Program-made: the position numbers and the translations under genes
Notes under the pieces: generated by a model
What the model was told of the DNA's origin: nothing
Databases searched by the model: none
What the model saw: only the letters and a program-made list of their open reading frames with translations
Shown: positions 8,877 to 40,185 of the stretch, one piece after another
Numbering within the stretch: position 1 is the first letter of the stretch
Layout: every line of letters starts with the position of its first letter
Assembly (NCBI RefSeq): GCF_056712565.1
Contig: NZ_CM160072.1
DNA length: 64,000 bases
Strand: one strand, 5' to 3'

Positions 8877-9269
8877 TTAACGATAATTTACAATCACTTC
8901 ATTCCGTTGAATCTTTAGCGGCGGAATTAACCGCCCACCGCCAGGCACTTCCCAGATAAAGCGCAACGGTTCTGCCGCCGGTATACCGGAAAAGGCCATG
9001 GTGGTTCCACTCTGCCCCTCTAATTCGACACAACGAGATTGTGAACACAAGCGAACCCGCAGTCCTGCAGGTGTCGGACCGATAAGCTGATAACGCCACG
9101 CCACCAGCGTCATCAATCCTGAAGCAGGTTGTCGCGTAGAAAGAGGCGCTGACGACATCGATTCACCGCGATGATTTAGCGTAACGCCCACGCTACTCGC
9201 CTGCCACATCCCCTCCCCGGCGGCTTGCACCAGCAGCGGAAACAATAATATTGCTAATAAGGCTCTCAT
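8877..9269 (-). CDS. flhE: Flagellar protein FlhE
   Basis: 130 aa with signal peptide; last gene of the flhBAE operon. Confidence 0.85.
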   Translation of the reverse strand: MRALLAILLFPLLVQAAGEGMWQASSVGVTLNHRGESMSSAPLSTRQPASGLMTLVAWRYQLIGPTPAGLRVRLCSQSRCVELEGQSGTTMAFSGIPAAEPLRFIWEVPGGGRLIPPLKIQRNEVIVNYR

Positions 9270-11347
9270 TATTTGCCGCCAATCGTCGCCGTCATACGGA
9301 TATGTCGGTTATCTGATAGTTCCAGATTCGACAGCACCACTAACTGCGGCAAGCTGCGGCGCAGGAAGCGAGACAATAATGGTCGCAGCGCGTGGTTCAC
9401 CAACAATACCGGCGGCGCACCCAACATCTCCTGACGGGATAGCGCTTCCTGAGTTTGCGCCAACAAGCGATCCGCCAGCCCTGGCTCCAGTCCCCCCCCG
9501 CCCTGCAATGCCTGTAGCAACAAACGTTCCAGCGGTGTATCGAGGCCAATAACATGGACTTCATCTTTGCCAGGAAACCACTGCTGGGTAATCGCCCGTC
9601 CCAACGCCACGCGCACGACGGCGGTTAATTCATGTGGATCGCTCTGAATGGGCGCATGTTCCGCCAGCGTTTCGAGAATGGTGCGCATATCGCGAATCGG
9701 CACTTTTTCATCGAGCAGATTTTGCAGCACTTTATGCAGTGTGGTAAGCGTGACGACGCCAGGAACGAGATCTTCCGTCAGCTTTGGCATCTCCTGGGCG
9801 ACGCGATCCAGCAGCTGTTGCGCCTCCTGACGACCAAACAGCTCTGCGGCATGCTGGCTAATGAGGTGGTTAAGATGCGTTGCCACCACCGTGCTGGCCT
9901 CAACCACGGTGTACCCCTGAATCTGCGCCTGTTCTTTAAGCGCACTTTCAATCCAGATAGCATTCAGGCCAAATGCCGGATCGACGGTCGCCTCACCAGG
10001 TAACGTCCCGGCAGCGGTTCCAGGGTTAATCGCCAACCAACGCCCCGGATAAGCATCACCACTGCCTATCTCCACGCCTTTCATCAAAATGCGATAGCGG
10101 GCAGGTTGCAGATCCATATTGTCGCGAATGTGCACCACTGGCGGCAGAAACCCCATCTCCTGGGCAAATTTCTTGCGGATACTGCGTATACGGCCCAACA
10201 ACTCACCATCCTGCTGGAAATCGACCATCGGGATCAGTCGATAACCCACTTCCATTCCCAGAGAATCTTCCAGTTGTACATCGTTCCACGTCGCTTCGAC
10301 AACGGTATTATTCTCTGCCATTTTTACCGGTTTTGGTTCGGCAGGCGCTTTTTGTTCACGTCCGCGGATCCACCAGGCCAGTCCCAGCAATCCGGCAGTG
10401 AACAGCAAAAATACCAGGTTCGGCATTCCAGGCACCAGGCCGAGTAAACCGAGCACGGCGGCGCTTAATAACATAACGCTTGGGTTACTGAAAAGCTGAT
10501 TCACCATCTGCTCGCCAACATCCTGATCGGTGCTGACACGTGTAACGATGACGCCCGCGGCGGTAGAAATCACCAGTGCCGGGATTTGTGCCACCAGACC
10601 GTCGCCAATGGTCAATAGCGTATAACTTTCCGCCGCGTGCCCCATGCTCATGCCATGTTGCAGCACACCGACCAGCAATCCGCCGACAACGTTAATGACC
10701 ATGATGAGGATCCCGGCGATGGCATCGCCGCGAACAAACTTACTTGCCCCGTCCATCGAGCCGTAAAAATCGGCTTCCTGAGTCACTTCGGAGCGGCGTT
10801 TTTTCGCTTCATCTTCACCAATCAATCCAGCGTTAAGGTCGGCGTCAATCGCCATCTGCTTACCCGGCATACCATCGAGAACAAAGCGCGCGCCCACTTC
10901 CGCAATACGCCCGGCACCTTTGGTGATAACCATAAAGTTGATGATCACGAGAATGACGAACACCACGATACCGATAGCGAAATTGCCACCAACGAGGAAG
11001 TGACCGAACGCTTCGACCACCTTTCCAGCCGCCGCCGCGCCGGTATGCCCTTCCATCAAAATGATACGGGTTGAAGCCACGTTAAGTGCCAGACGCAACA
11101 GCGTGGTAAACAACAGGATGGTCGGAAACGCAGCAAACTCAAGCGTGCGCTGGGTAAACATCGCCACCAGCAACACCATGATCGACAAGGCAATATTGAA
11201 GGTAAACAGCAGGTCGAGTATGAATGCGGGCAGTGGCAGTACCATCATCGACAAGATCAACAGGATCAAAATCGGTCCGGCAAGGATCTGCCATTGTGTC
11301 GATTTCAGGTTTGCAGGCAGGCGCAGCATCGCGGCCAGATTACTCAT
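9269..11347 (-). CDS. flhA: Flagellar type III export apparatus protein FlhA
   Basis: ORF 9269..11422; start set at the internal Met (MSNLAAMLRL...) giving 692 aa and the usual 8-bp overlap with flhB. Confidence 0.9.
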   Translation of the reverse strand: MSNLAAMLRLPANLKSTQWQILAGPILILLILSMMVLPLPAFILDLLFTFNIALSIMVLLVAMFTQRTLEFAAFPTILLFTTLLRLALNVASTRIILMEGHTGAAAAGKVVEAFGHFLVGGNFAIGIVVFVILVIINFMVITKGAGRIAEVGARFVLDGMPGKQMAIDADLNAGLIGEDEAKKRRSEVTQEADFYGSMDGASKFVRGDAIAGILIMVINVVGGLLVGVLQHGMSMGHAAESYTLLTIGDGLVAQIPALVISTAAGVIVTRVSTDQDVGEQMVNQLFSNPSVMLLSAAVLGLLGLVPGMPNLVFLLFTAGLLGLAWWIRGREQKAPAEPKPVKMAENNTVVEATWNDVQLEDSLGMEVGYRLIPMVDFQQDGELLGRIRSIRKKFAQEMGFLPPVVHIRDNMDLQPARYRILMKGVEIGSGDAYPGRWLAINPGTAAGTLPGEATVDPAFGLNAIWIESALKEQAQIQGYTVVEASTVVATHLNHLISQHAAELFGRQEAQQLLDRVAQEMPKLTEDLVPGVVTLTTLHKVLQNLLDEKVPIRDMRTILETLAEHAPIQSDPHELTAVVRVALGRAITQQWFPGKDEVHVIGLDTPLERLLLQALQGGGGLEPGLADRLLAQTQEALSRQEMLGAPPVLLVNHALRPLLSRFLRRSLPQLVVLSNLELSDNRHIRMTATIGGK

Positions 11348-12488
11348 GGGTCGGTTTCTCGTTAATAAAATCCAGGGCTTCCGGCACCGGAAGATGTGTA
11401 GGTTGTACAGGGCGTTGTCCACCAGCCAGACGCCAGCGTTTCAGTTGCCAGACCCAGGCCAGCACTTCCGCCACCGCGGCGTACAGTTGACCCGGGATTT
11501 GTTGACCGATCTCCGCATGTCGATACAGCGCACGCGCCAGCGGCGGCGCTTCAAGCGTCGGGACGTTATTTTCAGCGCCAATTTCACGAATGCGCAGCGC
11601 GACCAGCCCTGCACCTTTAGCGACCACTTTCGGTGCGCTCATTTTGTTTTCGTCATACTGCAACGCTACCGAATAGTGGGTCGGGTTATTGACAATGACA
11701 TCCGCTTTCGGCACATCGGCCATCATCCGACGCCGTGCGGCCGCTCGCTGCATCTGACGGATCCGCCCTTTAACATGGGGGTCGCCTTCGCTTTGTTTGA
11801 ACTCATCACGAATATCCTGCCGTGACATTCGCAGCTTTTTCAGGTGGCTGAAGATTTGGAAAAAGACGTCAAATCCCACCATTGGAATGACACCAAGCAC
11901 CACCAGCAGCGCGCATAGCCCTACCAGATCCATCGCATTACCCATGGCGGTAATCGGAGACTCGGCCATTAAGCGCATCATCTGCGGCCAGTGATGCCAG
12001 AGAAAAAACCCCGTCACGCTGCCAACCAGGATGGTTTTCAAAATTGCCTTAAGCAACTCCGCGCCAGTCTGTGCCGAGAACATCCGTTTAATGCCCGGTA
12101 GCGGGTTGAGTTTGGAAAACTTCGGCTGCAAGGATTTTCCGCTAAATACCAGCCCCCCCAGCATAACCGGAGAAATAATCGCCACCAGCACCACGCCGCT
12201 AATCAGCGGTAGCAGCGCCAGCATGGCTTCTCTGATCAGCAGAATAATCTGCCCGAGGATCAGATTCGGGTCATTGATAATACTGTGATCAAAATGCAGC
12301 CCTGCGGAGAGCATGCCCGACAATCGACGGGCCAGCGACACACCGCCAAACCAGATAACACTAACGCCCACCAGCAAAATCAGCAGTGAAGTCAGTTCAC
12401 GGGAACGCGGGATTTGCCCCTCTTCCCGCGCTTTTTCTAGTCGGTGAGGTGTGGGGGCTTCTGTTTTGTCGTCGCTCTCGTCAGACAC
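11340..12488 (-). CDS. flhB: Flagellar export apparatus protein FlhB
   Basis: 382 aa, N-terminal TM domain, conserved NPTH autocleavage motif. Confidence 0.9.
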   Translation of the reverse strand: MSDESDDKTEAPTPHRLEKAREEGQIPRSRELTSLLILLVGVSVIWFGGVSLARRLSGMLSAGLHFDHSIINDPNLILGQIILLIREAMLALLPLISGVVLVAIISPVMLGGLVFSGKSLQPKFSKLNPLPGIKRMFSAQTGAELLKAILKTILVGSVTGFFLWHHWPQMMRLMAESPITAMGNAMDLVGLCALLVVLGVIPMVGFDVFFQIFSHLKKLRMSRQDIRDEFKQSEGDPHVKGRIRQMQRAAARRRMMADVPKADVIVNNPTHYSVALQYDENKMSAPKVVAKGAGLVALRIREIGAENNVPTLEAPPLARALYRHAEIGQQIPGQLYAAVAEVLAWVWQLKRWRLAGGQRPVQPTHLPVPEALDFINEKPTHE

Positions 12489-15686: not shown

Positions 15687-15913
15687 TCAGGATACCACTG
15701 GCGCAATTTGTAACTGCGCCGACTCATGTCGTGCTACTTCATGTTCTTCAAGGGTAAATACCGCCACACGCGACGAAAGATGGTCGGCCTGATTCAGTCG
15801 TTGCAAATCGTCGCGAAATGCCCAAAAGACATGCCGTTACTGCCAATCTGCAAGATCCCGCAGAGAATCAAAATTAAAAACAGCGTGGTCGAAATTCGAA
15901 TACGATTAAACAT
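15687..15913 (-). pseudogene. tap: Remnant of methyl-accepting chemotaxis protein IV (tap): N-terminal and C-terminal codons only
   Basis: Minus-strand ATG at 15913 encodes MFNRIRISTTLFLILILCGILQIGSNGMSF and stops after 37 codons; another frame reads FWAFRDDLQRLNQADHLSSRVAVFTLEEHEVARHESAQLQIAPVVS* ending 18 bp before cheR. Only 227 bp lie between tar and cheR where a full tap is ~1.6 kb. Confidence 0.8.
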
Positions 15914-18288: not shown

Positions 18289-21180
<2,892 letters not shown>

Positions 21181-21184
<4 letters not shown>

Positions 21185-22068
21185 GCTTCCTCGGTTGTCG
21201 TCTGTTGTTGCGGATTTTTCACCGCACGCACATGCTCTTCCAGCTCAATAAACGACGGACGTTCGCTGGAATAGAGCGTTTTGCGACCAAACTCAACGGC
21301 GATAGGCGGTGCGTAACCGTTCAGATTAGAAAGCAGAGTGACTTTGACGCACTGCATCATTTTGCTGGTTTCGGCGCTTTTCTGACGTAAAACACTCGCT
21401 AATGGGGAAATAAATCCGTAAGCCAATAAAATACCGAGGAAAGTCCCCACCATCGCATGAGCGATAAGCGCCCCCAGCTCGGCGGCAGGACGATCGGCTG
21501 AACCTAACGCGTGAACGACCCCCATTACAGCCGCAACAATACCAAACGCCGGAAGTGAGTCCCCGACCAGCGCCAGACTGTTCGCCGGGACTTCTGCCTC
21601 GCTTTCGTGCGTCTCAATCTCTTCATCCATCAGAGCTTCGATTTCGAAGGTGTTCATGTGACCGCTGATAATCAGGCGCAGATAATCGACGATAAATTCA
21701 AGCATGACGCTATCCGCAAGGATGCGTGGGTAGCTGGCGAAGATCTCGCTCTCACGGGGATTTTCAATATCGCGTTCCAGCGAAAACATCCCCATCTGCC
21801 GCGATTTCGCCATCAACCGATAAAGCAGAGCCAGCAGATCCATATACATTGCTTTGGTGTATTTGGAGCGACGAAACAGCAACGGCAGCGCCTTCAGCGT
21901 GCCTTTAATCGCTTTGCCATTATTGCCGACGATAAACGACCCAATCCCTGCACCGGCAATAATCACCAGTTCAGCGGGTTGATAGAGTGCTCCAAGGCTT
22001 CCACCGGTCATCAAATAACCGCCGAAAACTGTACCGAGAACAACCAGGTAACCTAATAAGATAAGCAC
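21181..22068 (-). CDS. motA: Flagellar motor stator protein MotA
   Basis: 295 aa, four-TM proton channel; 4-bp overlap with motB. Confidence 0.95.
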
Positions 22069-24340: not shown

Positions 24341-27693
<3,353 letters not shown>

Positions 27694-39960: not shown

Positions 39961-40185
39961 ATGAGTACGCCTGATTTTTCTACTGCCGAGAATAATCAAG
40001 AACTGGCAAATGAAGTCTCCTGCCTGAAAGCGATGCTGACGCTGATGCTGCAGGCGATGGGACAAGCTGACGCGGGCCGCGTGATGTTAAAGATGGAAAA
40101 ACAGCTTGCGCTGATCGAAGACGAAACCCAGGCTGCAGTATTTTCCAAAACGGTTAAGCAAATTAAACAAGCCTACCGTCAGTAA
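39961..40185 (+). CDS. yecF: Uncharacterised small protein YecF
   Basis: 74-aa ORF at the conserved position between uvrY and sdiA, followed by a terminator. Confidence 0.7.

Follow-up and report, generated by a model that had tools for sequence, protein, structure and literature searches.

Stop/start overlaps between consecutive flagellar genes in a region of the Escherichia coli chromosome: geometry, conservation and plausible translational coupling

Overlaps between the end of one gene and the beginning of the next are a common, well-described and already known architecture of bacterial operons. The stretch of DNA analysed here (64,000 nucleotides, referred to below as the window) carries a number of them within flagellar operons and raises the question of what they represent: whether they are correctly placed, what they say about the start codons of the genes concerned and whether they link the translation of neighbouring genes. 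Very probably they are of an ordinary kind, seven stop/start overlaps belonging to the canonical -1, -4 and -8 classes, through which translation of the downstream gene would be coupled to that of the upstream gene. The first-pass annotation had listed six, all of which are present with single-base precision, the sequence, the open reading frames and the PGAP annotation being in agreement; it had left out the seventh, between flhA and flhE. All involve neighbours on the same strand and they comprise three -1, one -4 and three -8 spacings:

11340-11347, minus strand: flhB/flhA, 8 bp, ATGAGTAA, with the flhA ATG at 11347-11345 and the flhB TAA at 11342-11340
9269, minus strand: flhA/flhE, 1 bp, TAATG, with flhA stop TAA and flhE start ATG; the seventh overlap
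21181-21184, minus strand: motA/motB, 4 bp, ATGA
50116, plus strand: fliS/fliT, 1 bp, TGATG, with fliS stop TGA and fliT start ATG
61373-61380, plus strand: fliF/fliG, 8 bp, ATGAGTAA, with fliF stop TAA and fliG start ATG
62361-62368, plus strand: fliG/fliH, 8 bp, ATGTCTGA, with fliG stop TGA and fliH start ATG
63047, plus strand: fliH/fliI, 1 bp, TAATG, with fliH stop TAA and fliI start ATG

Gene identity was assigned using NCBIfam equivalog models with their curated cut-offs, the PGAP names on a near-identical genome serving as a second source. Ten proteins score above the NCBIfam cut-offs, the N-termini of the models align with the annotated starts and the PGAP names agree. The near-identical genome is that of E. 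coli ATCC 11775: a 4-kb piece around the flhB/flhA junction is 100% identical in the two (and finds a match in 5383 of 5426 complete E. coli genomes), and over the stretches compared the window differs from it by 10 substitutions and 0 indels. With only some ten SNPs and no indels, the PGAP annotation of ATCC 11775 therefore transfers base for base. The genes concerned, from PGAP and NCBIfam (the model is given after the coordinates), are:

8877..12488, minus strand: flhB (11340-12488, TIGR00328), flhA (9269-11347, TIGR01398) and flhE (8877-9269, NF047946)
20258..22068, minus strand: motA (21181-22068, TIGR03818) and motB (20258-21184, NF006548)
49706..50481, plus strand: fliS (49706-50116, TIGR00208) and fliT (50116-50481, NF007836)
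59722..64000, plus strand: fliF (59722-61380, TIGR00206), fliG (61373-62368, TIGR00207) and fliH (62361-63047, NF004266)
63047 to beyond the window end, plus strand: fliI, from PGAP and partial in the window

The overlaps fall between consecutive genes of the operons flhBAE, motAB-cheAW, fliDST and fliFGHIJK. From what is established for the flagellar regulon of E. coli and Salmonella, the genes of each of these operons are taken to share one transcript. E. coli K-12 and Salmonella show the same, or almost the same, gene order, gene lengths and junction geometry; the present strain differs from these in lacking tap, of which it retains a remnant, and in carrying a different island beside fliE, but the overlaps are unaffected. 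The description of such overlaps as present throughout the flagellar and chemotaxis operons was nevertheless too broad. Those of the flagellar genes are real, but overlap occurs at only 7 of the 16 junctions that the window contains within operons of the flagellar regulon, and none of the che genes overlaps a neighbour at any che junction in the window. These are separated by short gaps (motB-cheA +4, cheA-cheW +20, cheR-cheB +2, cheB-cheY +14 and cheY-cheZ +10), and further non-overlapping flagellar junctions include flhD-flhC (+2), fliD-fliS (+24) and fliA-fliZ (+45).

Overlaps are not specific to the flagellum. Among neighbouring non-flagellar genes that lie close together in the window, six of 11 pairs overlap as well (cmoAB -4, otsBA -26, uvrYC -4, yecUF -14, tcyLN -4 and yedEF -4). 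The -8 class is represented by three of the seven flagellar overlaps versus none of the six non-flagellar ones. Two of the latter, otsB/otsA (26 bp at 25740-25765) and yecU/yecF (14 bp at 39961-39974), are co-directional, longer and non-canonical. That unrelated operons overlap as often as the flagellar ones lends some weight to an alternative in which the overlaps would have arisen neutrally, through genome compaction and because stop codons evolve readily in or next to start codons; they would play no part in setting expression, and the downstream genes would initiate independently. We consider this alternative unlikely in view of the junction conservation and ribosome binding properties described below.

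The first-pass annotation had also argued that the overlaps support the internal start codons chosen over longer open reading frames. The starts themselves are right, but the argument covers flhA and fliH only, the two genes among those that overlap which have a longer in-frame ORF, and it is to some extent circular, since choosing that start is what creates the overlap. The two upstream candidates are:

11420..11422, minus strand: rejected flhA start GTG, 25 codons upstream of the ATG (717-aa ORF), Shine-Dalgarno (SD) pairing -1.5 kcal/mol
62340..62342, plus strand: disfavoured fliH start TTG, 7 codons upstream of the ATG (235-aa ORF), created incidentally by the FliG codons ATT GGC

If the GTG at 11422 and the TTG at 62340 were the true starts, the real overlaps would be 83 and 29 bp and not 8 bp. 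In E. coli both codons occur and neither frame is interrupted, and the fliH TTG is found in seven of the eight genera compared, yet the independent evidence makes this reading highly improbable. For flhA, the upstream extension is open in Escherichia and Rouxiella only; in most genera (including Salmonella, Citrobacter, Enterobacter and Edwardsiella) the ATG is preceded at a distance of 0-6 codons by an in-frame stop, and no other start is available. SD pairing at the GTG is weak, and the NCBIfam FlhA model has no need of the additional N-terminus. N-terminal proteomics, proposed earlier as a check, has been published for flhA: Table S1 of the TRAINSPOTTER N-terminomics study (PMC13245402) includes, for K-12 flhA (b1879), the peptide MSNLAAMLR, which corresponds to residues 1-9, and the annotated ATG is also backed by Ribo-RET and INRI in the same study. 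Use of an upstream start, which was to count against the annotated one, is thus contradicted by both the peptide and the stops found in most genera. The annotated flhA ATG is correct and the 717-aa form is excluded.

For fliH, the TTG derives from conserved FliG codons and is lost in Serratia, where ATT is replaced by ATC. The fliH SD sequence, GAGGA, is located between the TTG and the ATG, with pairing energies of -6.5 kcal/mol for the ATG versus -3.5 kcal/mol for the TTG. The FliH N-terminus, M-S-D/N/E, is conserved across genera, and alignment with the NCBIfam FliH model begins at residue 6, corresponding to model position 2. On these comparisons we favour the ATG over the TTG as the probable start of fliH. 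As quality control, the gene start of flhA is confirmed and that of fliH favoured, the 717-aa ORF being an open-frame artefact and the 235-aa ORF probably another. The end of fliG itself consists of tandem in-frame stops, TGA TAA (62366-62371), both of which are included within the first fliH codons.

True starts might conversely lie downstream, for example at Met7 of FlhA, in which case some junctions would have no overlap. The second methionine of FlhA does occur at codon 7, but the published peptide begins at Met1, and codon 1 is an invariant ATG in 78 of 78 loci whereas Met at codon 7 is not conserved (Pantoea MANNLAAKLRLP, Yersinia MANLAALLRLP), with per-base major-allele fractions of 0.63-0.85. 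The FliH residues located N-terminal to its next Met are also retained across genera. We regard the chance of downstream starts as negligible.

With the starts fixed, the conservation of the junctions can be considered. The comparison drew on the flhBAE loci of 80 species of Enterobacterales, in which FlhA shares 80-99% identity with the query. The flhB/flhA spacing is -8 in 75 of the 79 readable species (71 of 75 from a scripted analysis together with four Pantoea loci read by eye as ATGGCTAA) and -1 in the remaining four. The flhB stop takes its T from the third position of flhA codon 2 and its AA from codon 3, which encodes Asn. This synonymous position is occupied by T in 76 of 78 loci; the two that differ (GCG) belong to the four in which the flhB stop has shifted to -1. 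At the third positions of flhA codons 5-14 the major allele reaches only 37-73%. Loss of the flhB TAA in the window would lengthen FlhB by 66 codons. Within E. coli, the 71-nt flhB/flhA junction is found at an identity of at least 95% in 5385 of 5426 complete genomes, and an identical 8-bp junction is annotated in a K-12 MG1655 derivative. These comparisons argue that the overlap geometry is maintained beyond chance expectation, since it is kept at divergences which scramble synonymous sites. They also weigh against a purely neutral origin: in the 79 species, flhB/flhA never adopts a positive or non-canonical spacing.

Other junctions behave similarly. The flhA/flhE spacing is -1 or -4 in 59 of the 66 loci with an flhE-like ORF, and motA/motB is -4 in five of five genera (this E. 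coli, Salmonella, Yersinia, Serratia and Pantoea). The fliF-fliK junctions were compared in Escherichia and seven further genera, eight in total. Here, fliG/fliH is -8 in all eight; at fliF/fliG three genera (Escherichia, Salmonella and Enterobacter) have -8 and the other five -4; fliH/fliI is -1 in seven genera and -4 in Pantoea; fliJ/fliK is -4 in every genus compared; and fliI/fliJ does not overlap in any of the eight. Besides flhA/flhE, five of the seven junctions (flhB/flhA, motA/motB, fliF/fliG, fliG/fliH and fliH/fliI) thus remain overlapped in five or more genera. At these six compared junctions, overlap is a stable property across Enterobacterales. The switches in class among genera (fliF/fliG between -8 and -4, fliH/fliI and flhA/flhE between -1 and -4), which have no obvious consequence, are nevertheless what would be expected if overlaps were neutral.

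The flhB/flhA and fliF/fliG junctions have a 9-mer in common, CATGAGTAA, at 11339-11347 (minus strand) and 61372-61380 (plus strand): FlhB and FliF both end with His-Glu, while FlhA and FliG both begin with Met-Ser-Asn. This is probably a coincidence because other genera read ATGGCTAA at flhA. A different type of variation occurs at fliG/fliH, where a 16-bp deletion covering the overlap (window positions 62363-62378; locus L090 2001-3659) is present in eight E. coli contigs. It removes the fliG stop together with FliH codons 1-5 and generates an in-frame 552-aa FliG-FliH fusion (P0003). Singleton fusions of 557 aa (P0018, P0019, P0026 and P0029), which arise from 1-nt frameshifts within the last seven fliG codons, may be assembly errors.

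How might the overlaps act? A ribosome finishing the upstream gene would terminate 0-5 nt from the downstream ATG, so that the downstream cistron would be translated at least in part by ribosomes delivered from the upstream cistron, whether through termination-reinitiation, through an opening of the initiation region or through both. An SD sequence within the upstream gene could assist at motB, fliH and fliI and would contribute little at flhA and fliG. Output would in this way be tied for proteins which assemble together: FlhB with FlhA, MotA with MotB, FliF with FliG and FliH with FliI. Predicted SD pairing of the downstream genes is good for motB (-5.9 kcal/mol), fliH (-6.5) and fliI (-7.0), moderate for flhE (-4.8) and fliT (-4.0), and weak for flhA (-3.0) and fliG (-3.1), the last two being the weakest of all starts examined with the exception of fliA. 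These values bear on independent initiation in both directions, since motB, fliH and fliI have good SD sequences of their own, as a neutral origin would allow, whereas pairing at flhA and fliG is so weak that independent initiation there would be poor. A version of the mechanism in which translation of the upstream gene unfolds a structure masking the downstream start was dropped: the predicted unpaired probability (from -18 to +5) and the local minimum free energy showed no difference between overlapping and other starts (Mann-Whitney p = 0.33), so that predicted accessibility of the initiation regions lends it no support.

The overlaps resemble the canonical coupled type in their structure. 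They include the same three motifs (NTGA for -4, TRATG for -1 and NTGNNTRA for -8) between same-strand operon neighbours, at several junctions (most clearly those of motB, fliH and fliI) an SD is predicted inside the upstream gene, and the pairs often encode subunits of a common complex; there is no structural difference. A 2025 review (PMC12548453) lists -4, -1 and -8 as spacings which are enriched in prokaryotes generally, and ascribes the abundance of -4 to its ease of evolution, which favours a neutral explanation. Huber et al. 2019 (PMC6728339) used reporter tests, in which most of the overlapping E. coli pairs proved to be tightly coupled, a result which argues against this explanation, although they found the role of the SD to be variable and one overlapping pair, bioBF, to be uncoupled. 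Among the seven pairs, motAB is the only one for which we found published coupling: it is cited as a described E. coli case in PMC6728339. Literature searches for published coupling of flhB/flhA or fliF/fliG returned none; a Salmonella translatome paper (PMC10710512) contains nothing on these junctions, and no flagellar genes occur among the start-site data in the supplements of PMC4909307 (TetRP). Translational coupling at the seven junctions is plausible.

Coupling has been demonstrated experimentally by Lovdok et al. 2009 (PMC2716512) for cheR-cheB, cheB-cheY, cheY-cheZ and cheA-cheW. These pairs belong to the same operons and the same window, and the same purpose has been proposed for their coupling, namely constant ratios of interacting proteins. 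They differ, however, from the overlaps listed above in being separated in the window by gaps of +2 to +20 nt, with no overlap. The che pairs show that coupling does not require an overlap. Nor is an overlap sufficient for coupling or proof of it, a point which is worth keeping in mind.

The flhB/flhA junction presents a particular difficulty. The flagellar export gate includes about nine copies of FlhA for each FlhB, and in simple reinitiation the output of the downstream gene is no higher than that of the upstream gene. The need for more FlhA than FlhB together with this ceiling implies that simple reinitiation is not the whole story at flhB/flhA, and it is probable that flhA, weak as its SD is, has independent initiation as well. 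In the proteome tables of PMC8144880, FlhA is non-zero in many conditions while FlhB is zero throughout, a gap which may in part reflect detection bias. The very weak SD at the flhA start (11345-11347) sits oddly with pure reinitiation from flhB given this detection of FlhA. Either an unrecognised boost to initiation at the overlapped start or synthesis of FlhB in excess followed by its degradation would be a further way to reconcile these features, but we hold both to be quite doubtful.

A number of features in the neighbourhood of the overlaps also deserve mention. In cheA, an internal in-frame ATG at codon 98 (position 19962, minus strand) is preceded by its own SD, GAAGGA (-5.4 kcal/mol), and we take it to be the known start of the short form, CheA-short. 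No other site in these operons has two in-frame starts that are both genuinely in use. CheAS has been described as having its own endogenous ribosome binding site (PMC2716512). The tap chemoreceptor gene is absent between cheR and tar, where a frameshifted remnant of 152 nt (15762-15913) is annotated as a Tar ligand-binding-domain pseudogene. Between yedK and fliE, a block at 55405-58848 includes an ompC-like porin gene, ybcM, ybcL and emrE. In K-12, genes with these names belong to a prophage remnant, and the block looks like a strain-specific island adjoining the flagellar region.
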